Shown: positions 5,339 to 40,092 of the stretch, in pieces | How positions within the stretch are numbered: position 1 is the first letter of the stretch | Layout: the number at the start of each line of letters is the position of its first letter | DNA from: Acidobacteriota bacterium | GTDB taxonomy: Bacteria > Acidobacteriota > Vicinamibacteria > Fen-336 | DNA length: 64,000 nt | Assembly: GCA_003222275.1 (NCBI GenBank) | Contig: QHVJ01000150.1 | Span: 10,518-74,517, forward strand | Direction: 5' to 3' | Notes under the pieces: generated by a model | The model's database searches: none | What the model was told of the DNA's origin: nothing | The model's input: only the letters and a program-made list of their open reading frames with translations | Position numbers and translations under genes: made by a program

Positions 5339-5389
5339 TCCCGAAAGGGGAGAGGGTATACCACGTCCCCTCGTCCGAACTCAACCCTA

Positions 5390-5425
5390 TTGTCGCAGAG
5401 TCGTCACCCGGGCAAGGCTTACAAT
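5390..5425 (+). promoter_or_regulatory. Possible Pho box (TTGTCGC-agag-TCGTCAC) followed 12 bp later by -10 TACAAT, upstream of ppx
   Basis: Two 7-mers with a 4-bp spacer occupy the -35 position relative to a good -10 hexamer 8 nt before the ppx ATG. It matches the porin box CCGTCAC at 6/7 in the second half-site only. Confidence 0.3.
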
Positions 5426-5433
5426 GAGCAAAG

Positions 5434-23602: not shown

Positions 23603-24150
23603 TGGGAACGGAGCTGGAGGCGGTCCGGGACATGCTGCCGGAGGCGGCCAAGGACATCCGCCTGAACCTGCAGTCGGTGCTGCAGGGCGGGCCGCTCACC
23701 CCGGCCCAGCGGTGGGGGACGGCCGTCGCGGCCGCCCTCGCCGCCCGCAACCCCCGACTGCGCGATGCGCTCGTGGCGGAGGCGCGGCGGGAGGTGGAAG
23801 AGGCCGTGATCGAGGACGCGCGGGCGGCGGCGGCGATCATGGCGATGAACAACGTCTACTACCGGTTCCGGCACATCGTGGGCAAGGCGTCCTACGGCGA
23901 GAAGCCGGCGCGCCTGCGCATGAACCGCCTCGTGCAGCCGGCGGGCAGCAAGGTGGACTTCGAGCTCTACGCGCTGGCGGTGAGCGCCCTCAACGGGTGC
24001 GAGACCTGCGTGCAGGCCCACGAGCGCACGGTGCTCGAGGGCGGGCTGACCGAGGACCACGTGCACGACGCCGTCCGCATCGCGGCCACGGTCAAGGCCG
24101 CGGCCGTCGCGCTGGAAATGGTGGAGGCGCCGGCGGCGATGACGGCCTAA
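23602..24150 (+). CDS. ahpD: Alkylhydroperoxidase AhpD (carboxymuconolactone decarboxylase family)
   Basis: ATGA overlap with ahpC. AhpD core LNGCETCVQAH (CxxC-H). Confidence 0.8.
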   Translation: MGTELEAVRDMLPEAAKDIRLNLQSVLQGGPLTPAQRWGTAVAAALAARNPRLRDALVAEARREVEEAVIEDARAAAAIMAMNNVYYRFRHIVGKASYGEKPARLRMNRLVQPAGSKVDFELYALAVSALNGCETCVQAHERTVLEGGLTEDHVHDAVRIAATVKAAAVALEMVEAPAAMTA

Positions 24151-25145
24151 GAGCCCGTGACGGCGCGAATCGCCAGGTAGCTGATCGCCGCCACCAGGGC
24201 GGCGAGGGGGATGGTGAGGATCCACGCCCACACGATGGTTCCCGCCACCCCCCATTTCACCGCGGAGATCCGCCGCGTGGCTCCCACCCCGATGATCGCG
24301 CCCGTGATCGTGTGCGTGGTGGACACCGGGATGCCGAGATGCGTGGCCAGGAACAGCGTGATCGCGCCGGAGGTCTCGGCGCAGAAGCCGCCGAAGGGCT
24401 GAAGCTTCGTGATCTTGGTGCCCATCGTCTTGACGATGCGCCAGCCGCCGAACATCGTGCCGAGCGCGATGGCGGCGTGGCAGGTGATGATGACCCAGAA
24501 GGGGATCTCGAAGCCCTGGTGGTAGCCGGCGGTGACGAGCAGGCCGGTGATGATGCCCATCGTCTTCTGGGCGTCGTTGCCGCCGTGGCCGAGGCTGTAG
24601 AGCGCGGCGGAGACGAGCTGCATCCGCCGGAAGAGCTGGTCGAGCCGAAAGGGGTGCCAACGCCGGAAGATCCACGTCACGGACACCATGAGGACGAAAC
24701 CCAGGAACGCGCCCATGACCGGCGCGAGCACGATGAAGATCAGGGTCTTCGTCCATCCCGAGAGAAGGATTGCGCTCGTCCCCGCCCGCGCCACGGCGGC
24801 GCCGGCGTAGCCGCCGATGAGCGCGTGCGACGAGGAGACTGGCAGCCCGTAGTACCACGTGAACAGGTTCCACGTGATGGCGCCGATGAGGCCGGCGAGG
24901 ATCACGTGCTGGTTCACGACCGTGATGTCGATCATCCCCTTGCCCATCGTCTTGGCCACGGCGGTGCCCATGACGAAGGCGGCCACGAAGTTGAAGAAGG
25001 CGGCCCACAACACCGCCTTCTGCGGAGAGAGCACGCGCGTGGAGACGACGGTGGCGATCGAGTTGGCGGCGTCGTGGAAGCCGTTCAGGAAGTCGAAGGT
25101 GAGCGCGACCAGGATGATGAAGACGACGCCGAGGTCGAAGGTCAA
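24147..25145 (-). CDS. pit: Inorganic phosphate transporter, PiT family
   Basis: PiT signature LTFDFLNGFHDAANSIATVV and internal repeat GGNDAQKTMGII. TTG start inferred at 25145, just after the upstream DUF47 stop; the ORF track's longer N-terminus would overlap DUF47. Confidence 0.8.
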   Translation of the reverse strand: MTFDLGVVFIILVALTFDFLNGFHDAANSIATVVSTRVLSPQKAVLWAAFFNFVAAFVMGTAVAKTMGKGMIDITVVNQHVILAGLIGAITWNLFTWYYGLPVSSSHALIGGYAGAAVARAGTSAILLSGWTKTLIFIVLAPVMGAFLGFVLMVSVTWIFRRWHPFRLDQLFRRMQLVSAALYSLGHGGNDAQKTMGIITGLLVTAGYHQGFEIPFWVIITCHAAIALGTMFGGWRIVKTMGTKITKLQPFGGFCAETSGAITLFLATHLGIPVSTTHTITGAIIGVGATRRISAVKWGVAGTIVWAWILTIPLAALVAAISYLAIRAVTGS

Positions 25146-25153
25146 GGCCTGGC

Positions 25154-25807
25154 TCAGGCGTTCTTCACGAGCACGTTGCCGAGGGCGTGGGTGAAGTCCT
25201 TGCACTCGTCGCAGGCGTCTTCCAGGCCCTGGTAGATCTCCTTCCACTTCATGATCTCGAGCGGCTTCTTGCCCTCGCCGCCGCGGAAGAGCTCGGCGAT
25301 CACGCTGAAGTAGACGGTGTCGGCCTCGTTCTCGAGCTGGGAGATCCGGACGATCGACTCCCGGATGACCTTGTCGTTCCCGAGGTCCCAGATGAGGGAG
25401 GTCGCCTTGTGGATCTCCTCGACCATCGACACGATGATCTCGGCGAACTTCCGCAGCGGCGGCGGGCTCTCGCCGATCTCGAACAGGATCAAGAACTGGG
25501 CCACCCCCTCCAGGTAGTCGAGGATGTCGTCGAGGTCGCTGGCGATGACGCGGATGTCCTCCCGGTCGAGCGGCGTGATGAACGTCGAGTTGAGGGCGTC
25601 GAAGATCTCCTTCGTGATCTGGTCGCCCTCGTGCTCCAGCGCCTTCAGCTCCGCCACCTTCGTCCGGCGCACGTCCAGGCTCTGGCTGGCCGCGATCTCG
25701 CCGAAGAGGCGCGCGGCCCGCAGGAGGTGCTGGGTGTCGCGGTCCAGCAGCTCGTGAAACCGCTCCTCCTTCGGCATGAAGAACTTGACGATCTTGTCGC
25801 CTCGCAT
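25154..25807 (-). CDS. DUF47 (PhoU-like, TIGR00153) Pit accessory protein
   Basis: DUF47 family organisation, upstream of and co-directional with pit. Confidence 0.8.
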   Translation of the reverse strand: MRGDKIVKFFMPKEERFHELLDRDTQHLLRAARLFGEIAASQSLDVRRTKVAELKALEHEGDQITKEIFDALNSTFITPLDREDIRVIASDLDDILDYLEGVAQFLILFEIGESPPPLRKFAEIIVSMVEEIHKATSLIWDLGNDKVIRESIVRISQLENEADTVYFSVIAELFRGGEGKKPLEIMKWKEIYQGLEDACDECKDFTHALGNVLVKNA

Positions 25808-25988
25808 GCCTCGACCCCCCTCGATACCGACGACAATGACATCGACGCTACTTTTTGGTGATGTTCCCGTGATCGTAGCACGGCCGCAATTCCTCTTGCG
25901 TTCCGGCCCCCGCCCTGCACTCGTGCCCCTGGCTCGAGCCGTCGTCGTTCCGAATGCGGCGTGCCCCGAATGCGGCTCCGCTTGATCC

Positions 25989-26024
25989 TTGACAAAACCT
26001 ATAGTTCTAGTATATTGGAACTAT
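25989..26024 (+). promoter_or_regulatory. arsR promoter/operator: TTGACA-16-TATATT with inverted repeat ATAGTTC-N10-GAACTAT overlapping the -10 and the arsR ATG
   Basis: Near-consensus sigma70 hexamers in an AT-rich island. The -10 is about 7 nt before the ATG at 26023 (leaderless); the dyad typical of ArsR/SmtB operators overlaps -10/+1. Confidence 0.5.
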
Positions 26025-26352
26025 GGATGAGAAACGGGCAGTGGCCGCCCTCGGGGCGCTGGCCCAGGAATCGCGCCTGAAAGTGTTCCGCCTCCTCGTG
26101 CGCCGAGGGCCGTCGGGCCTGGCCGCGGGCGAGATCAGCCAGCGTGTGGGCGTGCCGCCTACGACGCTTTCCTTCCATCTGGCGCAGCTGAACCGCGCCG
26201 GGCTCGTGACCTCGCGGCGAGAGGGCCGCTCCATCCTCTACGCGGCGGACTACGACGGCATGCAAACCCTGATGGGCTTCCTGGTCGACCACTGCTGCCA
26301 GGATGGAACCGGTTGCGCGCCGCCCGAAGCGGCGCCAAGGAGACGAAGATGA
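26023..26352 (+). CDS. arsR: ArsR/SmtB family metalloregulator
   Basis: HTH ArsR family (ESRLKVFRLL...GEISQRVGVPPTTLSFHLAQL). C-terminal Cys cluster CCQDGTGC. Confidence 0.85.
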   Translation: MDEKRAVAALGALAQESRLKVFRLLVRRGPSGLAAGEISQRVGVPPTTLSFHLAQLNRAGLVTSRREGRSILYAADYDGMQTLMGFLVDHCCQDGTGCAPPEAAPRRRR

Positions 26353-27167
26353 CCGAAGAGCTGGTACGGAAGGTCCGGGAGCGCTATGCCCAGATTGCCG
26401 AAGGACAGGTCAGCGGGTGCTGCGGCCCGCAGACTTCGGGGTGCGGGTCCGAGTCCGCGGTGACCCTCGGCGTCGGGTACGACGCGAGCGAGCTGGCTCT
26501 AGTGCCCGCCGAGGCGAATCTGGGCCTGGGCTGCGGCGCCCCCATCGGCTTCCTGTCGCTGAAAGCCGGCGAGACCGCTCTCGACCTCGGCTCGGGGCCG
26601 GGCCTGGACACGTTCCTCGCCGCCCGTCAGGTCGGGCCGGAGGGCCGCGTGATCGGGGTCGACATGACGCCGGCGATGCTGGAGCGCGCCCGCGCGAACG
26701 CCGCCAAGATCGGCGTCTCGCACGTGGAGTTCCGGGAGGGCCGGCTGGAGGCGCTGCCCGTCGAGAGCTCCTCGATCGACGCCGTGACCAGCAACTGCGT
26801 GATCAACCTGGTGCCGGACAAGCGGGCGGTTTTCGCGGAGATCGCGAGGGTGCTGCGGCCCGGCGGGCGCGTGGTGATCTCGGACATCCTGCTCGACGGA
26901 CGGCTTCCGGCGGTGGTCGAGCAGGACCTGCTCGCCTACGTGGGCTGCGTCTCGGGGGCGATGAGACGCGAGGAGTATTTCGCCCTCGTGGGCGCGGCCG
27001 GACTCGAGAAGGTGGAGGTCCTTCGGGACGTGGACTACCTGGCCACGCTCATCGAATCCGCCCCCGATGAGGTGGGCGCGCTCGAGGCGCGAACGGGCGT
27101 CACCCGAGAACAGGTTCTCGGTCGCGTGCACTCCGTGACCTTCCGCGCCGAGAAGCCGGCGCGCTGA
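26349..27167 (+). CDS. arsM: Arsenite S-adenosylmethionine methyltransferase ArsM
   Basis: ATGA overlap with arsR. N-terminal Cys pairs (GCCGP...GCGSE); SAM-MTase motif LDLGSGPGLD; ArsM C-terminal region. Confidence 0.8.
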   Translation: MTEELVRKVRERYAQIAEGQVSGCCGPQTSGCGSESAVTLGVGYDASELALVPAEANLGLGCGAPIGFLSLKAGETALDLGSGPGLDTFLAARQVGPEGRVIGVDMTPAMLERARANAAKIGVSHVEFREGRLEALPVESSSIDAVTSNCVINLVPDKRAVFAEIARVLRPGGRVVISDILLDGRLPAVVEQDLLAYVGCVSGAMRREEYFALVGAAGLEKVEVLRDVDYLATLIESAPDEVGALEARTGVTREQVLGRVHSVTFRAEKPAR

Positions 27168-27319
27168 AGGAGATCGTCGCCCCGCCCGCGGGGACCGGGC
27201 CGTCACCACGTCGCCTCTCGACGGTCACGCTCCGGTCGGGCCGGCCACCGATGCTCTGGCCCATGAGCTTCGCCGGCGTCCTCGATTCAGACGAGAATGC
27301 GGTTCAGGGAGCCGCCACC

Positions 27320-27730
27320 GTGGACAGGGTGATCTTCGCCTGCGTACGCAGCGCCGGCCGGTCGCAGATGGCGGCCGCGTTCTTCAACCGGCTCGCCGAT
27401 CCTGAGAAGGCGCGCGCCGTGTCGGCCGGCACCGAGCCCGCGGAGCGCGTCCATCCCGAGGTCGTCGAAGCGATGCGCGAGGCCGGCTACGACCTGTCCG
27501 GTGCCCGGCCCTCGCTCCTGCAGAAAGAGCTGGCCACCCCCGCGAGCCTGCTCGTCACGATGGGCTGCGGCGAGGCCTGCCCCTACGTACCGGGGCTCCG
27601 CCGGGAGGATTGGGCTCTCGATGATCCCAAGGGGCGGGACAAGGACGAGGTGCGCCGGATCCGAGACCAGGTCCGCGGCCGCGTCGAGAGGCTGGTCGCC
27701 GCGAACCGCTGGGCAGGTCCGTCGTCCTGA
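27320..27730 (+). CDS. arsC: Arsenate reductase ArsC (LMW-PTP / thioredoxin-coupled type)
   Basis: GTG start after RBS AGGGAG. P-loop CVRSAGRS (CX5R) and downstream Cys residues. The ORF track's longer N-terminus (27251) lacks an RBS. Confidence 0.7.
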   Translation: MDRVIFACVRSAGRSQMAAAFFNRLADPEKARAVSAGTEPAERVHPEVVEAMREAGYDLSGARPSLLQKELATPASLLVTMGCGEACPYVPGLRREDWALDDPKGRDKDEVRRIRDQVRGRVERLVAANRWAGPSS

Positions 27731-27766
27731 TCCGGCCGCGGCCGGCCCCGCCGCTTCTTTACCCTC

Positions 27767-27799
27767 CCGTGATCTGCCCGTCACACTACCGTCACACCG
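27767..27799 (+). promoter_or_regulatory. Putative Pho box: three tandem 11-bp units CCGTGATCTGC / CCGTCACACTA / CCGTCACACCG about 40 bp upstream of the porin-pst operon
   Basis: 7-bp direct repeats (CCGTCAC) separated by 4 bp match the PhoB box architecture CTGTCAT-N4-CTGTCAC; located upstream of a pstS-containing operon. Confidence 0.5.
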
Positions 27800-27837
27800 A
27801 GAGCACATCTTGGGGCTGTTCCACCGAGGAGGCTGAT

Positions 27838-28953
27838 TTGAACGACGCGCTGAGATCCGCTGTTCGCCTGGCCACGCTCGCCGGGGCCATCGCCCTCGCC
27901 GCCCCCGCGTTCGGCCAGGTCACGCCCGCCGCGGGCGGCACCCCCCCCGACGACACCCCGAGCGTGCGGGTGGGGACGACGATCTTCACCGACTACACGT
28001 ACACGGACCAGCCGACCGCGAAGGATGCCGACGGGAACGTCATCCACCCGAACGCATTCAACGTCGGGCGCGCCTACATCAACGTCACCGGCAACCTCTC
28101 GCACCTGGTCGCGTTCCGCGTCACGCCCGACGTCACCCGGGAGAGCGGGACCGGCAGCAGCCTGTCGGGCAGCCTGACCTTCCGGCTCAAATACGCCTTC
28201 GGCCAGCTCAACTTCGACGACTGGCTCACCCACGGGTCGTGGATCCGCATCGGGGTGCAGCAGACGCCCTACGTCGATTTCATGGAGGGCATCTACCGCT
28301 ACCGCTTCCAGGGCACGATCTTCGCGGAGCGGGAAGGCTTCCTCTCCTCGTCCGACTTCGGCATCTCCGGTCACTACAACCTGCCCGGCAACTACGGCGA
28401 CATCCACGCCGGCGTCTACAACGGCGACACCTACAGCCGCGCGGAGCCGAACGACCAGAAGGCCTTTCAGGTGCGGGGCACGCTGAGGCCGCTGCCGCTG
28501 GGGGGGTTCTGGAAGGGACTGCGCCTGTCGGCCTTCTACGACGCGGACCACTACGTCAAGAGCGGGGCCCGCAACCGGTTCATCGGGACGGCCACGTTCG
28601 AGCACGCGCACCTCAACGCCGGGGTCGATTACCTGGCGGCGAAGGACCGGACCGCCGTCACCGCCGCGGAGGTCAAGAGCGACGGCTGGTCCGTGTGGGC
28701 GGTTCCCAGGCTCGTGGCCCTGGCCGAGAGCAAGTCCGGGTTCGAAGGCCTCTTCCGCTACGACTCGCTCCGGCCCAACAAGACCGTCGATGCGCGCCGC
28801 CATCGCCTGATCGTGGGCCTGGCCTACTGGTTCCCGCTGCTGCGGGGACCGTCGGCGGCGCTGCTCCTGGACATGGACCGCGACACCTATGACAAGGCGT
28901 TCAACCGGCCAAACGGGCGGCGCTACTCGCTGCATGCGCTCTTCAACTTCTGA
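27838..28953 (+). CDS. Outer-membrane beta-barrel porin, putatively phosphate-selective (OprO/P-like)
   Basis: TTG start with RBS GAGGAGG. Signal peptide; alternating beta-strand pattern; C-terminal ...ALFNF terminal Phe. First gene of the pst operon. Confidence 0.55.
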   Translation: MNDALRSAVRLATLAGAIALAAPAFGQVTPAAGGTPPDDTPSVRVGTTIFTDYTYTDQPTAKDADGNVIHPNAFNVGRAYINVTGNLSHLVAFRVTPDVTRESGTGSSLSGSLTFRLKYAFGQLNFDDWLTHGSWIRIGVQQTPYVDFMEGIYRYRFQGTIFAEREGFLSSSDFGISGHYNLPGNYGDIHAGVYNGDTYSRAEPNDQKAFQVRGTLRPLPLGGFWKGLRLSAFYDADHYVKSGARNRFIGTATFEHAHLNAGVDYLAAKDRTAVTAAEVKSDGWSVWAVPRLVALAESKSGFEGLFRYDSLRPNKTVDARRHRLIVGLAYWFPLLRGPSAALLLDMDRDTYDKAFNRPNGRRYSLHALFNF

Positions 28954-28986
28954 GCGTGAGCACGCTCCTTTCCGAGAGGTAGACCG

Positions 28987-30009
28987 ATGAGAGCTCGAGA
29001 CGCGGCCGTCGCCCTGGCCCTCGCCGCCGCCGCGGCCGTGCCCGCGGCCGCCCAGAACCTGCAGATCAACGGGGCGGGCGCGACGTTCCCGTATCCGATC
29101 TATTCCAAGTGGTTCTCCGAGTACAACAAGCTGCACCCGACGATCCAGATCAACTACCAGTCGATCGGGTCCGGCGGGGGCATCCGGCAGCTCACCAACC
29201 AGACGGTGTTCTTCGGGGCCAGTGACGGCCCGATGACCGCCGATCAGATCCAGGCGGCGGGGGCCCGAATCCTGCACTTGCCGGCCGTGCTGGGCGGCGT
29301 GGTTCCCGTCTATAACATCCCCGACCTTTCCGGCGAGCTCCGTTTCAGCGGGCCGCTCCTGGCCGACGTCTTCCTGGGCAAGGTCACCAGGTGGAACGAT
29401 CCGGCCATCGCCCGCGAGAACCCCGGAGTGACGCTTCCGGGGAGCGACATCACGGTCGTGCACCGGTCGGACGGATCCGGCACCACGTACATCTGGGTCG
29501 ATTACCTCGCGAAGGTGTCGCCGGAGTGGAAGCAGAGGGTCGGGGTCGCGACCTCCGTCAACTGGCCGGTGGGAGTGGGCGGCAAGGGCAACGAGGGCGT
29601 GGCGGGCCTCGTCAAGCAGACACCCGGATCCATCGGCTACGTCGAGCTGATCTACGCCCTGCAGAACAAGATCGCATATGGCGCGGTCAGGAACATGGAC
29701 GGCAATTACGTGAAGGCGTCGCTCGACACGATCACCCAGGCCGCGGCCGCCACTGAAGGAAAGATGCCGGCCGACTTCCGGGTCTCCATCACCAACGCAC
29801 CCGGCAAGAACGCGTATCCGATCGCTTCTTTCACCTGGCTGCTCTTCTACGAGTCGCCGAAGGACAAGGATCGGGCGCGGGCGATGGTGGACTTCATGAA
29901 ATGGGCGCTCGGCGACGGCCAGAAATACGCCGCGGATCTGGGCTATGCCCCGCTGCCCGCCAGTGTGGTGAAGCTGGAGCTGGCCGCGCTCAGCCGGATC
30001 AAGATTTAA
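28987..30009 (+). CDS. pstS: Phosphate ABC transporter substrate-binding protein PstS
   Basis: GAGATFPYPIYSKWF...SIGSGGG...HRSDGSGTT PstS motifs; signal peptide. Confidence 0.9.
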   Translation: MRARDAAVALALAAAAAVPAAAQNLQINGAGATFPYPIYSKWFSEYNKLHPTIQINYQSIGSGGGIRQLTNQTVFFGASDGPMTADQIQAAGARILHLPAVLGGVVPVYNIPDLSGELRFSGPLLADVFLGKVTRWNDPAIARENPGVTLPGSDITVVHRSDGSGTTYIWVDYLAKVSPEWKQRVGVATSVNWPVGVGGKGNEGVAGLVKQTPGSIGYVELIYALQNKIAYGAVRNMDGNYVKASLDTITQAAAATEGKMPADFRVSITNAPGKNAYPIASFTWLLFYESPKDKDRARAMVDFMKWALGDGQKYAADLGYAPLPASVVKLELAALSRIKI

Positions 30010-30081
30010 CGCAGCGTTAACCGGGGCGCAATGCGTCGTTTACCTCGGCGGCCTATTGTTGGGTGATCCCAGGAGACGCCA

Positions 30082-31164
30082 ATGACTCGCTCCCTCCGTC
30101 GTCTCGTCGTCCTCTGGGCCGGCCTGGCCGCCGCCTGTTCGGGCGGCGGGGCGCCCCAACGTCAGACCTCGACGCTGCCGGCCGGCGAAGCGTCCGCCGG
30201 TCCCTCGGCCGCTCCGGGGCAGATCAACGGCGCGGGCGCCACGTTCCCGTACCCCATCTACTCGAAGTGGTTCTCGGAGTACAACAAGATCCGTCCCGAC
30301 GTCCGGATCAACTACCAGTCGATCGGCTCGGGCGGCGGCATCCGCCAGCTCACCAACCAGACGGTCTTCTTCGGCGCCACCGACGGGCCCATGACCGAAG
30401 AGCAGCTGAAGGCCGCTCCGGGCCCGATCGTCCACCTGCCCACGGTCCTGGGGGGCGTGGTGCCCGCCTACAACCTGTCCGGCCTTTCCGCCGAGCTGCG
30501 CTTCAGCGGGCCCCTCCTCGCCGACATCTTCCTGGGCAAGGTCAAGAAGTGGAACGACCCGGCCGTGGCCAGGGAAAACGCGGGCGCGAAGCTTCCCGCC
30601 ATGGACATCACCGTCGTGCATCGTTCGGACGGCTCGGGCACCACCTACATCTGGGTGGATTACCTCTCGAAGGTCTCGCCGGAGTGGAAGGACCGGGTCG
30701 GGGTGGCGACGTCGGTGAACTGGCCGGTGGGCGTGGGCGGGAAGGGCAACGAGGGCGTGGCCGGCCTCGTCAAGCAGACGCCGGGATCCATCGGCTACGT
30801 CGAGCTGATCTACGCCACCCAGAACAACATCGCCTACGGCTCGGTGAAGAACGCGGCCGGCAAGTACGTGAAGGCCTCCCTGCCCTCGGTGACGGCGGCG
30901 GCCGCCTCCAGCGTCGACACGATGCCGGCCGACTTCCGCGTCTCGATCACGAACGCTCCCGGGGAGGACGCGTATCCGATCTCGTCCTACACCTGGCTGC
31001 TCCTCTACGAGCATCCCGCGGACAAGGAACGCGCGCGCATCATCGTGGACTTCATGAAGTGGGCCCTCACGGGCGGCCAGAAGTACGCGCCCGAGCTCGG
31101 CTACGCGCCCCTGCCCGAGAAGGTCGTCGGGCGGGAGCTCGAAGCCCTCACGAAGATCGGATAG
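30082..31164 (+). CDS. pstS: Phosphate ABC transporter substrate-binding protein PstS (second paralog, lipoprotein-type signal)
   Basis: About 80% identical to the upstream PstS over the mature domain; lipobox LAAAC. Confidence 0.9.
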   Translation: MTRSLRRLVVLWAGLAAACSGGGAPQRQTSTLPAGEASAGPSAAPGQINGAGATFPYPIYSKWFSEYNKIRPDVRINYQSIGSGGGIRQLTNQTVFFGATDGPMTEEQLKAAPGPIVHLPTVLGGVVPAYNLSGLSAELRFSGPLLADIFLGKVKKWNDPAVARENAGAKLPAMDITVVHRSDGSGTTYIWVDYLSKVSPEWKDRVGVATSVNWPVGVGGKGNEGVAGLVKQTPGSIGYVELIYATQNNIAYGSVKNAAGKYVKASLPSVTAAAASSVDTMPADFRVSITNAPGEDAYPISSYTWLLLYEHPADKERARIIVDFMKWALTGGQKYAPELGYAPLPEKVVGRELEALTKIG

Positions 31165-31167
31165 CCT

Positions 31168-32112
31168 TTGTCCAAGCACGACGACAAGCTGTTCCGGCTC
31201 GTCACGGCGATCGTGGCCGCCAGCGTGCTTCTCGTCGTCGTCGGCATCGCGGCGACGCTCATCCAGGGATCCTGGCTCTCCCTGCGGCAGTTCGGCTTCA
31301 GCTTCTGGCGGACGCGCACCTGGGACCCGGTGGCCGGGCAGTTCGGCGCGCTGCCCTTCATCTGGGGCACGCTGTACTCCTCGCTCCTCGCCCTGCTCCT
31401 GTCGACGCCGGTGGCCCTCGGCATCGCGGTCTTCCTCGCCGAGCTGAGCCCGCGTCTCCTGCGCCAGCCGCTCATCTTCCTCACGGAGCTGCTGGCCGCC
31501 ATCCCGTCGATCGTCTATGGGCTGTGGGGCATCTTCGTGCTCGTTCCCGTGGTGCGCAGCCTGGAGGCCGCGACCCCGGAGTGGCTCCGGCGCGTGCCGC
31601 TCTTCTCGGGACCTCCGCTCGGGGTGGGGATGCTCGCGGCCGCCCTGATCCTCGCGGTCATGATCACCCCGTTCTCCGCCGCGGTGGCCCGCGAGATCCT
31701 CCGCGCGGTTCCCACCTCCCAGCGCGAGGCGGCCTACGCGCTGGGTGCCACCCGGTGGGAGGCCATCCGCCTCGCGCTCTACTACGGCCGGACCGGGATC
31801 ATCGGGGCGGTGATGCTCGGGCTGGGCCGCGCGCTGGGGGAGACCATCGCCGTGACCATGGTCATCGGAAACAACCCGCAGGTCTCGGCCTCGCTCTTCG
31901 CTCCGCAGTACACGATGGCGGCGGTCATCGCCAACGAGTTCACGGAAGCCGCCGACGACCTCTACCTCCACGCCCTGGTCGAGATCGGGTTGGTGCTCTT
32001 CCTCATCACCATCGTCGTCAACGCGCTGTCCCGGCTCCTCCTGTGGCGGGTGGCGGACAAGCCGGTGGCGGTGGCGCCTTCGGCGGCGGCCCCGGTCGCC
32101 GCGGCGGCATGA
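31168..32112 (+). CDS. pstC: Phosphate ABC transporter permease PstC
   Basis: ABC permease EAA-like loop; PstC family; TTG start. Confidence 0.9.
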
Positions 32113-32972
32113 AGACGACCGCCTACGACCTGCGCCGGCGCGCCACCTCCCGGGCGGTGGAGATCTTCTGCGCGGCCTCGGTCGTCCTGGCCCTGGTGCC
32201 GCTCGGCCTCATCCTGTTCTTCGTCGTGCGCCAGGGGCTGCCCGCCCTGCGTCCGGCTTTCTTCACCCAGATGCCGAAGCCGGTGGGCGAGCCCGGGGGT
32301 GGGATGGCCAACGCGATGGTGGGCACCCTGATCCTCCTCGGCCTCGCCGCCGCGCTCGCGGTGCCCGTGGGGATCGTGAGCGGCGTGTTCCTCTCCGAGT
32401 ACAAGGGCAGCCGCATCGGCTCCGCCGTCCGCTTCGCCGCCGACGTTCTCAACGGCGTGCCCTCCATCGTCATCGGGATCTTTGCGTACACCGTGGCCGT
32501 GCTCCCGTTCCAGCGCTTCACCGCGCTGGCGGGAGGCCTGGCCCTGGGAGTCATGATGCTGCCCCTCATCGTGCGCACGACCGAGGAGCTGCTGCGCCTG
32601 GTGCCGGAATCCTTCCGGGAAGGGGCGCTCGCCCTCGGCGCCACCCGCTCCCGGGCGGTCTGGACGGTGATCCTGCCCGCCGCCCTGCCCGGCATCCTCA
32701 CCGGTGTCCTGGTGGCCCTGGCCCGGGTGGCGGGGGAGACGGCGCCGCTGCTCTTCACCTCGCTCAACAACCGTTTCTGGTCGACGCGCCTCGACCAGCC
32801 GATCGCCTCCCTGACGGTGCAGGTCTACACCTACGCCAACTCCCCCTACGACGACTGGCACCGCCAGGCCTGGGCGGGAGCGACGGTGCTCATCGCCTCC
32901 GTCCTGACTTTCTCCCTGCTCGCCCGGTTCGTCACCCGGCGCCTGGAGCGAATGCATCGAGGGACCGTATGA
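32109..32972 (+). CDS. pstA: Phosphate ABC transporter permease PstA
   Basis: ATGA overlap with pstC; PstA family TM pattern. The 30063..32972 ORF upstream of 32109 is alternate-frame noise over pstS/pstC. Confidence 0.9.
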
Positions 32973-33808
32973 GCCGCGACGTCGAGACGCCCGCCGATCC
33001 CGGCATCCGGATCCGGACCGAGGTGCGGGCGTCGGAGGCGCCGCGGGCGGCGGCCAGCACCGCCATCACGCTCCAGGGGGTCAACTTCAGCTACGGGCCG
33101 AACCAGGTCCTGCACGACGTCTCCCTGGACGTGGACGAGAAGCGCGTGACCGCCTTCATCGGGCCGTCGGGGTGCGGGAAGTCCACGCTACTGCGCTGCC
33201 TCAACCGCATGAACGACCTCATCGAGAGCGCCCGCCTCGCGGGCAGCGTACGGGTGAAGGGCCAGGACATCTACGCCCCCGGCACCGACGTCATCGCCGT
33301 CCGGCGGCGGATCGGGATGGTGTTCCAGAAGTCCAACCCCTTCCCGAAGTCGATCTTCGACAACGTGGTCTATGGGCTCCGCATCAGCGGGGTCCACGAC
33401 CGCCCGACGCTGGAGGCGGCCGTCGAGAAGAGCCTCACGCTGGCCGCGCTGTGGGACGAGGTGAAGGACCGGCTGCACCAGAGCGCGCTGTCGCTGTCGG
33501 GCGGCCAGCAGCAGCGGCTCTGCATCGCGCGCGCCATCGCGGTCGAGCCGGAGATCCTCCTCATGGACGAGCCCTGCTCGGCCCTCGACCCCATCGCCAC
33601 CCTCAAGATCGAGGAGCTGATCTACTCGCTCAAGGAGCGCTACACGATCGTGATCGTCACCCACAACCTGCAGCAGGCGGCGCGCGTCTCGGACAAGACC
33701 GCCTTCTTCTGGCTGGGACGGCTGGTCGAGTACGGCCCGACCGTCGACCTCTTCACCAACCCGAAGGAGAAGCTGACCGAGGACTACATAACTGGCCGAT
33801 TCGGCTAG
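32969..33808 (+). CDS. pstB: Phosphate ABC transporter ATP-binding protein PstB
   Basis: Walker [10 protein letters not shown]; LSGGQQQRL signature; Walker B LLMDEP. Confidence 0.9.
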
Positions 33809-33818
33809 AGGAGTGAAT

Positions 33819-33873
33819 GGCAGCACTCAGCAGTCAGCACTCAGCAAATGCTGAACGCTGATCGCTGAGCGCT
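33819..33873. repeat. Heptad-periodic palindromic repeat element (CAGCANT x4 / GCTGANC x4 arms), copy A
   Basis: Intergenic between pstB and phoU. The left arm is tandem 7-mers and the right arm is their inverted complement; the same architecture recurs at 38791..38877. Confidence 0.5.
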
Positions 33874-33889
33874 ACCGAACGAGGAAGAC

Positions 33890-34600
33890 ATGGAGGAACG
33901 TCGAGCGAGCGACCAGCGCCGCCATTTCGAGCGGCATCATTTCGAGGAGGAGCTGCAGGCGCTCAAGAACCGCCTGCTGAACATGGGCGCCCTCGTCGAA
34001 GAACGGGTGCACGACGCCACCCATGCCCTCATCGAGCGCCGGCTGGATACGGCGGAACGCATCATCGGCTCGGACCAGGACGTCAACGACCTGCAGATCG
34101 AGATCGACGAGCGGTGCCTGCGCCTGCTCGCCCTCCAGCAGCCCATGGCCTCCGACCTCCGGCTGATCACCGCGGCCATGAAGATCAACGCCGACCTCGA
34201 GCGGATCGGCGACCAGGCCGTGAACATCGCCGAGCAAGCGGTGCGCATCCTGGCCCACCCGCCGCTCAAGCCCATCATCGACCTCCCGCGCATGGCCGAG
34301 ATCTCCGAGCGGATGACCCGCGAGAGCCTCGACGCCTTCGTGCGCAAGGACGCCAAGCTGGCCCGCGCCATCCTGGCCCGCGACGACGAGGTGGACCAGC
34401 TCAAGGACCAGGTGTTCCGGGTGCTGCTCACCTACATGATGGCCGACCCCGGCACCATCGAGCGGGCCCTCGGCCTCATCCTGATCAGCCGGCACCTGGA
34501 GCGCATCGCCGACCATGCCACCAACATCGCCGAGGACGTGATCTTCGTGGTGGAGGCCAAGGACGTCCGGCATCACCACGAGGAGAGGCCGGGCTCGTGA
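33890..34600 (+). CDS. phoU: Phosphate signalling complex protein PhoU
   Basis: Two PhoU repeats with (D/E)xxxD motifs (ADLERIGDQAVNIAE, LERIADHATNIAE). Confidence 0.9.
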   Translation: MEERRASDQRRHFERHHFEEELQALKNRLLNMGALVEERVHDATHALIERRLDTAERIIGSDQDVNDLQIEIDERCLRLLALQQPMASDLRLITAAMKINADLERIGDQAVNIAEQAVRILAHPPLKPIIDLPRMAEISERMTRESLDAFVRKDAKLARAILARDDEVDQLKDQVFRVLLTYMMADPGTIERALGLILISRHLERIADHATNIAEDVIFVVEAKDVRHHHEERPGS

Positions 34601-35346
34601 AGGCCGGAGGAGCCGGCCGGGCCGACGCCCCGCCCCCGCCCGCCGACGCTCGCCGCCGCGTCCTGCTGATCGAGGACGACCGCGACATCGCGGAGGCCAT
34701 CGCATACCAGCTCGACAAGGCCGGACTGCAGGTCCGACGGGCCTTCACCGGCGAAGAGGGCCTGGAGGCCTCCCGCCGGGGAGTGGACCTGGTGCTCCTG
34801 GACCTCAACCTGCCGAGCATGGACGGGCTCGAGGTCTGCCGGATGATCCGGCGGCAGGCCGCCACCGCCCACGTGCCCATCATCATCGTCTCCGCCCGCA
34901 GCGACGAGGTGGACCGGGTGCTGGGCCTGGAGATGGGCGCGGACGACTACATGGTCAAGCCATTCAGCCTCAAGGAGCTGGCGGCCCGGTGCCGCGCGGC
35001 GTTGCGCCGGTCGGAGACGGCGTCCGGTCCCGCGGCGGCGTACGTGGACGACAACTTCGAGGTGGAGTTCGACGCCTATCTCGTGCGTTATCGCGGGCAG
35101 GAGGTGCGCCTCACCCCCAAGGAGTTCGAGCTGTTCCGCTACATGGTCGAGCGGCCGGGGCGCGTCGTCACCCGCGAGCGAGTGCTCGAGCACGTCTGGG
35201 GCTACGACACCGACATCGAGACGCGGAGCATCGACGCCCACATCCGGCGGCTGCGCATGAAGCTGGGCCCCGCCCGCGACCATGTCGAGACGATCGTGGG
35301 CCTGGGCTACCGCTTCGTTCCCAATCCCCACCCGCCTTCGTCCTGA
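34597..35346 (+). CDS. phoB: OmpR/PhoB-family response regulator (PhoB-like)
   Basis: GTG start overlapping the phoU stop. Receiver domain (LLIEDD...D...LVLLDLNLP...K) and winged-helix trans_reg_C (GLGYRF). Confidence 0.8.
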   Translation: MKAGGAGRADAPPPPADARRRVLLIEDDRDIAEAIAYQLDKAGLQVRRAFTGEEGLEASRRGVDLVLLDLNLPSMDGLEVCRMIRRQAATAHVPIIIVSARSDEVDRVLGLEMGADDYMVKPFSLKELAARCRAALRRSETASGPAAAYVDDNFEVEFDAYLVRYRGQEVRLTPKEFELFRYMVERPGRVVTRERVLEHVWGYDTDIETRSIDAHIRRLRMKLGPARDHVETIVGLGYRFVPNPHPPSS

Positions 35347-35353
35347 ACGCCGT

Positions 35354-37141
35354 TCACGCCGTCCGGCCCGCGCGCCCCGGCGGCACCGTCACCGTGAAGC
35401 GCGTGCCGCGGCCCGGCTGGCTTTCGACGCTCACCGTCGCGCCCATGCCTTCGGCCAGGTGCTTGGCGATGGAGAGCCCGAGGCCCGTGCCCCCCAGCTC
35501 GCGGCGGCGGGCCTTGTCGACGCGGTAGAAGCGCTCGAAGATGCGGGGGAGATGCTCGGGAGGGATGCCGGGCCCGTCGTCCGCCACGACCACCTCCGCC
35601 CCGCCATCGGCCGCGCGCCTGGTCGTGATCTCGATCCGGCCGCCAGCCGGCGTGTACTTCACCGCGTTCTCCACGAGGTTCTCCAGGATCTGCCGCAGGC
35701 GGTCGGCGTCGCTCACCACCGTCGGCGCGCCGTGGTCCGCGCGGTGGAGGGCGACCCGCTTCCGCTCGGCCGCACCGGCGAGGGAGGCCGCCACGTCTTC
35801 GGCCACCTCGGCGGGGGCCACCGGCTCCCAGCTGGGGGCGCGCTCCCCGGATTCCAGGCGCGACAGCTCGAGCAGGTCCGAGACGAGCCCCGCCATGCGG
35901 TCGGCGTGCAGGCGGATCTTCTCCAGGAACCGGCGCCCGGTCGCCGGCTCCTCCATCGCCCCGTCTTCCAGCGCCTCCACGAAGCCACGGATGGAGGTGA
36001 GCGGCGTGCGCAGCTCGTGCGAGGCGTTGGCCACGAAGTCGCGCCGTACGCGCTCCACGCGGTGGCGCTCGGTCACGTCGTGGAAGGTGAGCACGGCGCC
36101 CGGCGGCTGGCCTTCGGGGCCCGGGAACGGCACCCCGATGACCGCGTACGTGCGGCCCCCGCGGAGCATCTCCACCTCGTCCACGCGGCGGGCGCCCGCG
36201 CGCAGCACCTCTTCGATCAGCTCGCCCACCTCGCGCTGCCGGACGACCTCGAGGTAGTGCCGCCCCACCGGCTCGTGCAACCCTAGGCTGGCGCGCAGCG
36301 CCTGGTTGGCGAGGAGCACGGCGCCGCGGTGGTCCACCGCGATGACGCCGTCCTCCATCGCCGAGAGCATCGCGTCGATGCGCGCGCGGTCGCGCGCGAT
36401 CTCGGTGATCCGCTGCTGAAGCTGGTCGGCGGAGCGGTTGAGGATCCGGGCCAGCTCGCCGATCTCGTCGGAGCGGCGCACGGGGCTGCGGGCCGCGAGG
36501 TCGCCGGTAGCGAAGCGGCGCGCGGCGTCCATCACCTCGGCCAGGGGGCCCGCGAGCGACGAGGAGAAGGCCGCCGACAGGAGGGCGATCAGCGCGAACG
36601 CCACCGCGAGGGCGACGGTGACCGCGCGCTGCAGGTCGTCGATCTGCCCCTCCACGCCGGCCAGCGACAGCGCCACCCGGGAGACGCCGACGAGCCGTTC
36701 CTGGGAGCGGATGGCCACCGCGGCGTAGAGCAGGTCGTCGCCGACGGTCGTGCTGTGGCGGACGGAGCTGCCCGCGCCGGAAACGAGGGCCCCCTGCACC
36801 TCCGGCCGGTTACGGTGGTTCTCGACCGCGCGCAGCGCCTCGCCGGAAAGAGCGGAGTCCGCGATCACCGTCCCGTCGGGAGCGATGATGGTCACGCGGG
36901 CCCCGACCTCCCGGGCCGCCTCGTCGACGAGCGCGTCGATCTCGCCGGACGGGCGCCCCTCCGCGAGCGGCTGCGCCACGACCCGCGCCATCAGGCGCGC
37001 CTCCGCGAACAGCGTCGCCCGCACCTGCTCGACCGCCCGCCGGTGCAGGTCCGGCCCCTCGAGCGCGAGCACGACCACGAGCGCCGTCGCCGTCGCCGCG
37101 ACCGCGGTCACCGTCATGCGGCCCCGGAGCCCCAGGGTCAT
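35354..37141 (-). CDS. phoR: Sensor histidine kinase, PhoR-like (TM, HAMP, PAS, HisKA, HATPase)
   Basis: Start MTLGLRGRMTV at an ATGA overlap with the upstream response regulator. H-box ANASHELRTPL; G-boxes DDGPGIP and GGTGLGLSIA. Confidence 0.8.
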   Translation of the reverse strand: MTLGLRGRMTVTAVAATATALVVVLALEGPDLHRRAVEQVRATLFAEARLMARVVAQPLAEGRPSGEIDALVDEAAREVGARVTIIAPDGTVIADSALSGEALRAVENHRNRPEVQGALVSGAGSSVRHSTTVGDDLLYAAVAIRSQERLVGVSRVALSLAGVEGQIDDLQRAVTVALAVAFALIALLSAAFSSSLAGPLAEVMDAARRFATGDLAARSPVRRSDEIGELARILNRSADQLQQRITEIARDRARIDAMLSAMEDGVIAVDHRGAVLLANQALRASLGLHEPVGRHYLEVVRQREVGELIEEVLRAGARRVDEVEMLRGGRTYAVIGVPFPGPEGQPPGAVLTFHDVTERHRVERVRRDFVANASHELRTPLTSIRGFVEALEDGAMEEPATGRRFLEKIRLHADRMAGLVSDLLELSRLESGERAPSWEPVAPAEVAEDVAASLAGAAERKRVALHRADHGAPTVVSDADRLRQILENLVENAVKYTPAGGRIEITTRRAADGGAEVVVADDGPGIPPEHLPRIFERFYRVDKARRRELGGTGLGLSIAKHLAEGMGATVSVESQPGRGTRFTVTVPPGRAGRTA

Positions 37142-37827
37142 TGCGGCTCGTCGCTCAGCCGGTAGCCCAGCGTCTTCACGGTGAGGATCGACGGCGCGAG
37201 CTCGGGGATCTTCTCCCGCAGCCGGCGCACGTGCACGTCCACGGTGCGCGTGCCTTCCGCGTAGGAGTAGCCCCACACCTCCTCGAGGAGGGACTGCCGC
37301 GAGAGCACGCGCCCCCGCGCCTCGACGAGCGCCACCAGCAGCGCGAACTCCTTGGCGGTCAGGCGCACGGGACGGTCGGCCCACTTCACGGTGTGGCGGG
37401 CGTGATCGACGTGAAGGGCGCCGAAGGTGAGCGGCTCGTCGGAAGCGGGCTTGCGGTCCAGCCGGCGGAAGAGCGCGCGCACGCGCGCCACCAGCTCCTT
37501 GGGGCTGAAGGGCTTCACCACGTAGTCGTCCGCGCCCATCTCGAGCCCCACGATGCGGTCCGCCTCGTCACCGCGGGCGGTGAGCATCACCACCGGCAGG
37601 TCGCGGGTGGCCGCCTCCCGCCGCAGCTCGGCGCACAGGGTCAGCCCGTCGATCCCCGGCAGCTGCAGGTCGAGGATCACGAGCTGATAGCCCCCGGAGC
37701 GGGCGCGGTCGAGGGCGCGGCGGCCGTCGGCGAGGGCGTCCACCGCCCAGCCGTCCGCGGACAGGTAGTGCACGAGCAGCTCGACGATGTCGGGGTCGTC
37801 CTCGACGACGAGAGCGCGGCGGGACAT
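37138..37827 (-). CDS. OmpR-family response regulator (partner of the kinase)
   Basis: Receiver domain plus trans_reg_C winged helix; 229 aa. Confidence 0.85.
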   Translation of the reverse strand: MSRRALVVEDDPDIVELLVHYLSADGWAVDALADGRRALDRARSGGYQLVILDLQLPGIDGLTLCAELRREAATRDLPVVMLTARGDEADRIVGLEMGADDYVVKPFSPKELVARVRALFRRLDRKPASDEPLTFGALHVDHARHTVKWADRPVRLTAKEFALLVALVEARGRVLSRQSLLEEVWGYSYAEGTRTVDVHVRRLREKIPELAPSILTVKTLGYRLSDEPQ

Positions 37828-38892: not shown

Positions 38893-40092
38893 GTGAGCCA
38901 GACGTACTTCCAGAAGGGCTTCGGCCTGCGCTCCGCGGTGGGTCCCGTGCTCTCCGAGAGCTACGACAGCCGCGTCGTGGACCGGCTGCGCGAGCTGGGG
39001 CACACGGCCCGGGCGGGGGACCTCGTCCTCAAGCTCGCCCGCGAGTTCGGCTTCTGCTACGGCGTCGACCGGGCCGTCGAGTACGCCTACGAGACGCGGC
39101 AGCAGTTTCCCGAGCGCCGGATCTTTCTCTCCGGCGAGATCATCCACAACCCGGAGGTGAACGGGCGGCTGGAGGCCATGGGCGTCCGCATCCTGCCTCC
39201 CGCCCACGATCCGGGCGTGCGCTACCGGGACGTGGATGCGGGCGACGTCGTCCTGCTGCCCGCCTTCGGGGTGCCGGTCGCGGAGATGGCGCACCTGCGC
39301 GGCAAGGGCTGCGTGCTCGTGGACACGACCTGCGGCAGCGTCCTCAACGTCTGGAAGAACGTCCACAAGTACGCGCGCGACGGGTTCACGGCCGTCATCC
39401 ACGGCAAGCACCATCACGAAGAGACCAAGGCCACCGCCTCCCAGGCGCTGACCCACGGCGGGGGCCACTACCTCTGCTTGAAGGACAAGTCCGAGGCGGC
39501 GGAGGTCTGCGAGTTCATCCGCGGGGTGGGGGAAGGCGAGGACCTGCGCCGCCGGTTCGCACACGCCACGGACCCCGGCTTCGATCCCGTCCGCGACCTC
39601 GCGCGCATCGGCCTCGCCAACCAGACCACGATGCTCATGAGCGAGAGCCTGGAGATCCAGGAGATGCTCCGCTCCGCCATGCGCCAGCGCTACGGCGAGG
39701 CGGAGCTGCCCGCCCGTTTCCAGGCGATGGATACCATCTGCTCGGCGACCCAGGACCGGCAGGACGCGGTCCTCAAGATGCTCGACGAGGGCGGCCTCGA
39801 CCTGATGGTCGTGATCGGCGGCTACAACAGCAGCAACACGCAGGCGCTGGCCCGCATCTGCACGGAGCGGCTGCCCACGTACCACATCGACGGCGCATCC
39901 TGCATCGAGCCGGAGCTGATCCGCCATCAGCCCGTGGGGAGCCACGCGGAGTCCCGCACGGCGGCGTGGCTGCCGGCGGGGCCGCTGCGCATCGGCCTGA
40001 CCGCCGGTGCGTCCACGCCCAACAACGTCGTGGGCGAGGTGGTGGCGCGGCTCCTGGCGTTGCGCGGGCTCCGCCCGGCCGACCTGTCCTAG
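38893..40092 (+). CDS. ispH: 4-hydroxy-3-methylbut-2-enyl diphosphate reductase IspH (long form)
   Basis: Conserved IspH blocks GFCYGVDRAV, IIHNP, VDTTCGSV, ANQTT, GGYNSSNT. GTG start. Confidence 0.85.
   Translation: MSQTYFQKGFGLRSAVGPVLSESYDSRVVDRLRELGHTARAGDLVLKLAREFGFCYGVDRAVEYAYETRQQFPERRIFLSGEIIHNPEVNGRLEAMGVRILPPAHDPGVRYRDVDAGDVVLLPAFGVPVAEMAHLRGKGCVLVDTTCGSVLNVWKNVHKYARDGFTAVIHGKHHHEETKATASQALTHGGGHYLCLKDKSEAAEVCEFIRGVGEGEDLRRRFAHATDPGFDPVRDLARIGLANQTTMLMSESLEIQEMLRSAMRQRYGEAELPARFQAMDTICSATQDRQDAVLKMLDEGGLDLMVVIGGYNSSNTQALARICTERLPTYHIDGASCIEPELIRHQPVGSHAESRTAAWLPAGPLRIGLTAGASTPNNVVGEVVARLLALRGLRPADLS

Follow-up and report, generated by a model that had tools for sequence, protein, structure and literature searches.

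A porin-pst locus with two Pho-box-like arrays in a Vicinamibacteria-like acidobacterium

The Pho box of E. coli and other proteobacteria is the direct repeat CTGTCAT-N4-CTGTCAT, and that of B. subtilis PhoP consists of TT(A/T/C)ACA repeats. In Pseudomonas aeruginosa, the genes of the phosphate- and diphosphate-selective porins OprP and OprO are not known to lie beside pst, and several PstS paralogs, some of them lipid-anchored, are found in Mycobacterium (PstS1-3) and in cyanobacteria (SphX/PstS). In Xanthomonas (X. oryzae and X. citri), the OprO-PhoX-PstSCAB-PhoU cluster is co-induced (PMC8220824), and PhoX and PstS are adjacent paralogs, 70% identical, with different promoters (PMC5439949). 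Here we describe a high-affinity phosphate-acquisition locus of a Vicinamibacteria-like member of the Acidobacteriota, located in a 64,000-nucleotide stretch of contig QHVJ01000150.1 (assembly GCA_003222275.1, positions 10,518 to 74,517; hereafter the window), in which a porin gene is followed by two pstS genes, pstC, pstA, pstB and phoU, and in which one Pho-box-like array precedes the porin gene and another the second pstS. In our view, this porin-Pst locus is likely to be under Pho control and to contain a second, internal Pho promoter.

The gene content and logic of the locus are familiar, and it is a variant of the known combination of a Pho-regulated porin with a Pst transporter. With the Xanthomonas cluster it shares the order porin, tandem PstS-family paralogs (~70-76% identical), pstC, pstA, pstB and phoU; it differs in that the second paralog is of the lipoprotein type, the divergent porin escapes detection by Pfam, translation of a PhoB-like regulator is coupled to that of phoU, the arrays have four units with G+C-rich spacers, and the phylum is a different one. 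The resemblance to P. aeruginosa OprP/OprO (PF07396; PDB 2o4v and 4rjw) extends to a 16-strand barrel, a Pho-type box upstream and conserved arginines lining the predicted lumen, and part of the window-porin family crosses the PF07396 threshold, whereas the window porin itself is shorter than OprP (345 versus ~410 mature residues), has no match to it at the sequence level and has no evident lysine cluster. As in the boxes of E. coli and B. subtilis, the repeats are direct, in 11-bp phase and in multiples of two, with a putative -35 position in the window, and the hexamers GTCACA and TTAACA/TTTACC resemble TGTCAT and TTAACA; in contrast to those boxes, the spacers here are G+C-rich, four units are usual, the dialect changes by class of Acidobacteriota, and both dialects occur within this one locus. 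Compared with the PstS sets of Mycobacterium and cyanobacteria, the pair found here, one soluble and one predicted to be lipid-anchored, is tandem, conserved, in a diderm and accompanied by a dedicated porin. Literature searches that combined Acidobacteria with phosphate porin, pstS or Pho box yielded nothing relevant, and four features appear to be undescribed so far: four-unit arrays with two dialects in one locus, a second PhoB paralog coupled to phoU, the divergent porin family, and a conserved pair of soluble and lipid-anchored PstS with its own box.

Pho-box-like arrays before the porin gene and pstS2

Array 1 lies in the 107-nucleotide (nt) spacer between the arsC stop codon (27730) and the porin start, and consists of four hexamers in 11-bp phase on the forward strand, TTTACC-N5-GTGATC-N5-GTCACA-N5-GTCACA (27758-27796). 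A first-pass annotation of this DNA had noted three consecutive 11-bp units, CCGTGATCTGC (27767-27777), CCGTCACACTA (27778-27788) and CCGTCACACCG (27789-27799). Their letters and coordinates are as written there, and they are the last three of the four, the first being TTTACC at 27758; the TTG start codon of the porin follows 38 nt past the last unit rather than the 40 bp given. Read from the sequence, CATCTT (27806-27811, forward strand), 9 nt past unit 4, is the putative -10 hexamer of array 1, and a -10-like xAxxxT occurs at the same spacing in related loci (CAGTCT in L003, CAGACT in L005, CATTCT in L007 and L019, TATTGT in L042).

These related loci come from a genome scan for porin relatives (381 species genomes), with synteny read in the best 80 loci. 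The array 1 motif is kept upstream of the porin gene in L001-L007 and L019. The exact dimer CCGTCAC-N4-CCGTCAC occurs once in the 64-kb window, and the degenerate form YYGT[CG]AY-N4-YYGT[CG]AY has 10 matches in 1.08 Mb of related loci, both strands included; eight of these are on the coding strand at most 220 nt upstream of a porin ortholog, and the repeat is therefore not a product of chance. When a matrix of the 11-mer unit was built from eight orthologous loci, with the window excluded from training, its best match in the window was at 27778, with 23.3 bits against a maximum of 19.5 bits in 50 shuffles.

Array 2 (30006-30044, forward strand), TTAACG-N5-TTAACC-N5-GCAATG-N5-TTTACC, is found in the spacer between the two pstS genes, its unit 1 overlapping the pstS1 stop codon. 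The hexamer TATTGT (30054-30059, forward strand) stands 9 nt past unit 4, followed by AGGAG and then the pstS2 ATG; it is a candidate -10 element of array 2, the identical hexamer being present at the same 9-nt spacing upstream of the porin gene in L042. A scan of both strands (128 kb) with a generic hexamer matrix, derived from 22 sites of other genomes with spacers ignored and the window kept out of training, gave array 1 as the best match in the window (25.2 bits) and array 2 as the second-best (21.4 bits), with the next independent match at ~7 bits; not one of 300 shuffles reached the score of either array. The same two sites (27758 and 30006) came out on top with a 39-column matrix based on 16 Vicinamibacterales-type sites, again with the window absent from training, so that the PhoB/PhoP-like motif before the porin gene is the top match of matrices trained on other genomes. 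A sigma-70 scan found no promoter at either array.

The position of array 2 also recurs. The closest relative, L001 (a Vicinamibacteria metagenome-assembled genome with a porin 75% identical), has an equivalent array directly after pstS, TTAACGcggcgTTAACT..., at 26 bits, and a further array between porin and pstS, a spacer that is without a box in the window. In six of nine tandem-pstS loci the pstS1-pstS2 spacer carries the local box type (TTCACA-N5-TTTACA), and in the remaining three the spacers are too short for a box. None of the 75 four-unit matches of at least 17 bits in the related loci is inside a mapped pst, porin or pho gene, and most stand upstream of a porin, pstS, pstC or RRA-type regulator gene (RRA being the PhoB-like regulator coupled to phoU in the window). 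A reading of the related-locus upstream motifs as three unrelated dialects was dropped, as re-registering them gave a single four-unit architecture of four [GT][TA]NA[CT]N hexamers in 11-bp phase, then 9 nt and an xAxxxT hexamer; more distant loci have TTAACA-N5-GAAACA-N5-GTGACG-N5-GAAACG or TTCACG-N5-TTTACC in the same place.

The arrays thus show direct repeats, an 11-bp periodicity, units in multiples of two, and recurrence before phosphate-acquisition genes with rarity elsewhere, all of which are features of Pho boxes. A Pho box stands at the -35 position, ~10 bp ahead of a -10 hexamer, and the candidates CATCTT and TATTGT are each 9 nt past the last unit. The A/T-rich 4-bp spacer of the E. 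coli definition is absent, the spacers in the two arrays being ctccc, tgccc, ctacc, cagcg, ggggc and cgtcg. Of the PhoB 7+4 architecture originally proposed upstream of the porin gene, what holds is the 11-bp phase, its conservation in other genomes and its rank as top matrix match. Given its position in front of pstS2, array 2 implies an internal Pho promoter before pstS2-pstCAB-phoU, and the locus therefore probably comprises two nested transcription units. The earlier picture of one Pho-box-controlled operon is accordingly kept as regards Pho-box-like control and revised as regards the single unit.

The porin, the PstS pair and their conservation

The genes downstream of the arrays are all on the forward strand, in a window of ~70% G+C throughout. 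The porin gene (27838-28953, TTG start, 371 amino acids (aa)) ends 33 nt before the ATG of pstS1 at 28987, a distance that agrees with the first-pass annotation. PstS1 (28987-30009, ATG start; TIGR00975, 402 bits against a cut-off of 205), PstS2 (30082-31164, ATG start; TIGR00975, 392 bits against 205), the permeases PstC (31168-32112, with a TTG start 3 nt past the pstS2 stop; TIGR02138, 294 bits against 196) and PstA (32109-32972, its ATG overlapping the pstC stop as ATGA; TIGR00974, 278 bits against 193), the ATPase PstB (32969-33808, its ATG overlapping the pstA stop; TIGR00972, 402 bits against 343) and PhoU (33890-34600; TIGR02135, 230 bits against 130, with PF01895 in two stretches) all exceed their NCBIfam equivalog cut-offs and are all adjacent, which confirms pstC, pstA and pstB after the tandem pstS genes. 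Start and stop codons overlap by 4 nt at pstC/pstA, pstA/pstB and phoU/RRA. The order from porin to pstB is as first described; the cluster does not end at pstB, since phoU and the coupled PhoB-like regulator continue it.

The 80 loci compared are nearly all from Acidobacteriota (Vicinamibacteria, Thermoanaerobaculia and Polarisedimenticolia), with single representatives of Binatia, Eisenbacteria and Krumholzibacteriia. In ~70 of the 80, and across many acidobacterial classes, the porin gene is immediately followed by pstS(-pstS)-pstC-pstA, usually with pstB and phoU, and the linkage of porin and pst is therefore the norm of the phylum and not a peculiarity of the present genome. Together with the similar cluster published for Xanthomonas (PMC8220824, PMC5439949), this leaves little of the idea that a porin combined with duplicated PstS is notable in itself. 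Most loci also have linked Pho two-component genes, either ahead of the porin gene, behind pstB or, as in the window, behind phoU. In Vicinamibacterales-type loci pstB was not detected after pstA and must lie elsewhere. Two porin copies are present in one locus in several cases, in tandem in L011, L021, L023 and L024 and ~4 kb apart in L031 and L059.

The porin start is the TTG at 27838-27840, five nt downstream of the Shine-Dalgarno sequence GGAGG (27828-27832); it gives a signal peptide ending AFG-QV and a C-terminus ...LFNF. The longest open reading frame would start at a GTG at 27769, which overlaps the array and gives an N-terminus without a signal peptide, and this start was rejected: homologs and an independent gene caller, applied to metagenome contigs with the identical locus and giving the same 371-, 340- and 360-aa products for porin, PstS1 and PstS2, favour the TTG, in support of the initiation codon first proposed.

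At the level of sequence, the window porin has no Pfam or NCBIfam match (none to PF07396, Porin_O_P, even at E <= 10), and profile and single-sequence searches of PDB sequences with the porin, to E 10, gave no match. However, 16 of 34 aligned porin homologs do match PF07396 at E <= 0.01, and three homologs, 62-68% identical, exceed its gathering score. An AlphaFold model is a 16-strand barrel of the trimeric-porin type (predicted local distance difference test, pLDDT, 77.9). Two structural comparisons both rank OprP first for it, with 12-15% identity, and other 16-strand porins (Omp32, PorB and chitoporin) score nearly as high. In OprO/OprP porins an arginine ladder and a periplasmic lysine cluster line the channel. 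Assigned by strand parity of the alignment, the conserved residues predicted to face the lumen in the window family comprise 14 basic (13 Arg and one Lys) and 14 acidic ones. An invariant YRYRFQG motif with R154 and R156 is situated in the loop between strands 5 and 6, the constriction loop; overall the protein has 10 Lys and 27 Arg, with no lysine cluster evident. From these features we conclude that the protein belongs, remotely, to the OprO/P lineage and has a predicted lumen rich in Arg, so that the initial label of OprO/P-like porin survives as remote kinship, with a 16-strand barrel closest to OprP in structure, and not as membership by family profile or by close identity. The family is large and mostly labelled 'hypothetical', with more than 3700 matches at 90% clustering and 1978 clusters at 50% identity, 294 of them at E <= 1e-30.

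PstS1 and PstS2 are 76% identical over 329 aa, slightly less than the ~80% estimated at first. GAGATFP, SIGSGGG, FGA[ST]D and HRSDGSGTT, which presumably correspond to the phosphate-binding motifs of E. coli PstS, are identical in both copies save for one Ser/Thr change, and alignments to the PstS structures 8ods and 35yt show the four to be conserved there as well. Against E. coli PstS (1ixh) PstS1 scores 285 bits, and against 8ods 342 bits; the PstS search also matched PDB 1pc3, 7dm1 and 4lvq.

The two copies differ at their N-termini. PstS1 has an Ala-rich secretory signal of the signal-peptidase-I type (AAA-QN), while PstS2 has MTRSLRRLVVLWAGLAAAC, followed by a 27-aa Gly/Ser/Pro/Ala linker; its signal, MTRSLRR-LVVLWAGLAAA-C19, fits the broad lipobox pattern with Ala at -3. 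This division recurs in every one of the 11 related loci that have a pair of pstS genes (nine with adjacent copies, two with copies ~1 kb and ~5 kb apart), the first copy being of the signal-peptidase-I type and the second having a lipobox of the LVAC, LAAC or LVGC type, with linkers of 20-35 aa rich in Ser/Thr/Pro/Gly. The proposed contrast between a soluble and a lipid-anchored PstS is thereby borne out as a difference in predicted anchoring signals. In E. coli, lipoproteins without Asp after the lipobox Cys go to the outer membrane, a rule that may not apply in Acidobacteriota; Asp is absent from this position in all orthologs. In a neighbour-joining tree the second copies form a clade of their own, and PstS1 falls among the first, non-lipoprotein copies from other loci, pairing with L033 copy 1 and L001 and not with PstS2, from which it follows that the duplication is old.

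Regulators, transcription units and alternative readings

RRA, a PhoB-like OmpR-family response regulator of 249 aa (34597-35346, forward strand), starts at a GTG that overlaps the phoU stop codon (GTGA). Convergent with the pst cluster lie a PhoR/PnpS-like sensor histidine kinase (35354-37140, reverse strand, 5' end approximate) and, upstream of the kinase, a second PhoB-like response regulator, RRB (37138-37827, reverse strand). PhoB (TIGR02154) is the best NCBIfam model for both RRA (211 bits) and RRB (222 bits), and the kinase matches PnpS (NF046044, 373 bits) and PhoR (TIGR02966, 308 bits), both just under their cut-offs. The two regulators, 44% identical to each other, have a single PhoR-like kinase beside them.

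The arrangement of phoU followed by a response regulator is also seen in L001 (70% identical), L074, L015, L027, L039, L055, L058, L062 and L070. The recognition helix is RSIDAHIRRLR in RRA and RTVDVHVRRLREK in RRB, and across the related loci the hexamer dialect co-varies with the helix of the linked regulator. Helices of the RRA type, RS[IV]DAH[IV]RRLR (window, L001, L074), belong to loci with GTCAC-type arrays; the RRB type, RTVDVH[VI]RRLRE/DK, is found with the kinase beside TTAACA-type arrays, and in many Vicinamibacterales-type loci such orthologs lie with the kinase directly upstream of the porin gene. By lineage, the dialects are GTCAC[AC] in the closest relatives, TTCACG/TTTACC in Thermoanaerobaculia and TTAACA/GAAACA/GTGACG in Vicinamibacterales. 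Directly ahead of the RRA-type gene, Vicinamibacterales-type loci carry a separate four-unit array (for example L042 15949, L052 13482, L072 12040). This lineage-wise pairing of helix and array type suggests that the two arrays in the window are perhaps read by different regulators.

In the model that we favour, with two nested Pho-controlled units, a PhoB-family regulator phosphorylated under phosphate limitation would bind array 1 head-to-tail, the array replacing a -35 element, and would activate from this promoter (P1) the porin and soluble PstS1, with read-through onward. Array 2 (P2) would activate lipid-anchored PstS2 and then pstC-pstA-pstB, phoU and RRA, this second unit being fed additionally by read-through from the first. 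Co-transcription of this kind would accord with the 4-nt overlaps of start and stop codons and with the absence of significant hairpins from the porin-pstS1 and pstS1-pstS2 spacers. The porin would pass phosphate or a related oxyanion across the outer membrane, the two forms of PstS would deliver it to PstCAB, and PhoU, the two regulators and the convergent PhoR-like kinase would close a feedback loop.

Several observations weigh against this model. With 21-25 bits, the window arrays are at the low end of the related-locus sites in the same scan (17-36 bits), and unit 3 of array 2, GCAATG, is a poor one. CATCTT is a weak -10 candidate, and promoter rules of Acidobacteriota are not established. 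RRA (211 bits) and RRB (222 bits) both fall below the PhoB equivalog cut-off of 296, and each is a candidate for array 1 or array 2. The PstS2 lipobox, AAAC, is not the canonical L-[AS]-[GA]-C and is less canonical than those of its orthologs. Finally, the terminator-like hairpin behind arsC folds no more stably than shuffled sequence (z +1.14), and read-through from the ars genes into the cluster is therefore possible.

If array 1 alone were functional, a single transcript would run from the porin gene to pstB or beyond, and array 2 would be a relic, or a processing or attenuation site setting the PstS1:PstCAB stoichiometry. Such a single operon, which we consider unlikely, accords with genes on the same strand throughout, with the short spacers, and with the lack of a significant hairpin in the porin-pstS1 and pstS1-pstS2 spacers (folding z -0.97 and -0.38); array 2, besides its poor unit, scores below array 1, and three of the nine tandem-pstS loci leave no room for a box at this place. 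However, array 2 is one of the two outstanding matches in 128 kb, with TATTGT at the conserved 9 nt, an equivalent array follows pstS in L001, local boxes precede the lipoprotein pstS in six of the nine tandem loci, and the two binding-protein genes of Xanthomonas have separate promoters (PMC5439949).

A terminator scan returned only weak terminator-like hairpins at 27738-27754 and 30034-30052, no stabler than shuffles on folding, and a repeat finder gave nothing relevant in the cluster. Folding of 33800-33895 revealed a long, imperfect hairpin in the pstB-phoU spacer (33822-33873, forward strand; -36 kcal/mol over the 96-nt stretch, z -3.18, with two of 200 shuffles as stable). It has no U-run and no Rfam match, the Rfam scan of 25800-35500 yielding sub-threshold noise alone, and it may act in mRNA processing or stability, setting pstSCAB expression apart from that of phoU-RRA, or be a partial terminator.

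Under a second alternative, the repeats would serve an OmpR-family regulator with a signal other than phosphate (envelope stress or arsenic, for example), and the barrel would be a general or anion porin that stands beside pst by history. The missing PF07396 match of the window porin, the closeness in score of Omp32, PorB and chitoporin to OprP, the equal numbers of conserved acidic and basic lumen-facing residues (14 versus 14) and the ars genes directly upstream are compatible with this. Yet in many genomes these box types also stand ahead of pstS, pstC and Pho-type regulator genes, the adjacency of porin and pst is kept in ~70 of the 80 loci, in different classes and as far as other phyla, and PhoR/PhoB-like genes are linked to the cluster in most of them. 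ArsR-family repressors, moreover, recognise inverted repeats ahead of arsR, whereas the repeats here are direct and lie behind arsC. We regard a regulator unconnected with phosphate as quite improbable.

That the repeats arose by chance in a G+C-rich spacer is hardly credible: at three mismatches the pattern is as frequent as in shuffles (19 found versus 19.3 expected), but the arrays are conserved at the orthologous position and exceed all shuffles with matrices blind to the window, and on these comparative data we reject chance for practical purposes.

Surroundings and implications

The locus is part of a phosphate/arsenate island. An arsR-arsM-arsC operon (26023-27730, forward strand) ends 28 nt ahead of the first unit of array 1; arsM encodes an arsenite methyltransferase (NF008823, 295 bits), arsC is of the low-molecular-weight phosphatase type, and arsR has a near-consensus sigma-70 promoter, TTGACA-16-TATATT (25989-26016). 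An arsC gene is also found near pst in L030, L040, L048 and L076. Arsenate is a phosphate analogue imported by Pst and Pit, and because it enters by these routes the adjacency of ars and pst may be functional. A Pit-type phosphate transporter (PF01384) and its PhoU_div/DUF47 partner (24147-25807, reverse strand) are oriented divergently to the ars genes; no Pho-type array was found upstream of the Pit gene.

A polyphosphate module (4451-10765) includes a CHAD-domain protein (reverse strand), ppx (5434-7002) and ppk (8609-10765). Just upstream of ppx, at 5390, is a two-unit box-like site, TTGTCGCAGAG-TCGTCACCCGG, followed by TTACAAT. The orthologous-unit matrix gives this site 17.6 bits but the generic one only 9.5 bits, and it is a weak lead for a further member of the Pho regulon. 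Another site, at 60940, is inside an aminotransferase gene and was taken as chance. Downstream of the cluster lie IspH (38893-40092) and an LptD homolog (40980-43247), the latter confirming a diderm envelope with lipopolysaccharide transport.

A broader reading is that Acidobacteriota have a distinct Pho design. Its elements would be four-unit 11-bp arrays whose dialect tracks the regulator; two PhoB tiers, a PhoR-paired RRB and a Pho-box-controlled RRA that in the present genome is coupled to phoU; and a lipid-anchored PstS with its own Pho promoter, beside a soluble PstS co-expressed with a dedicated porin of a previously unrecognised subfamily. We put this forward tentatively, as possible rather than probable. 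In its boldest form, PstS2 would be tethered beneath the porin or at the permease by its 27-aa linker, and phosphate would be handed over without free diffusion.

The cluster is a phosphate-scavenging set of a soil member of the Acidobacteriota, made up of an outer-membrane pore, two binding proteins, an ATP-binding cassette transporter and regulators. Acidobacteriota rank among the commonest bacteria of soils, where phosphate is frequently in short supply. The comparative data give a model of the cis-element (four hexamers, phased at 11 bp, whose dialects are class-specific), a marker porin family, present in 381 species genomes, and a conserved PstS pair with separate predicted Pho control, which in combination would permit Pho-regulon prediction in uncultured soil lineages. 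They also raise the question of why a diderm needs a tethered phosphate receptor.

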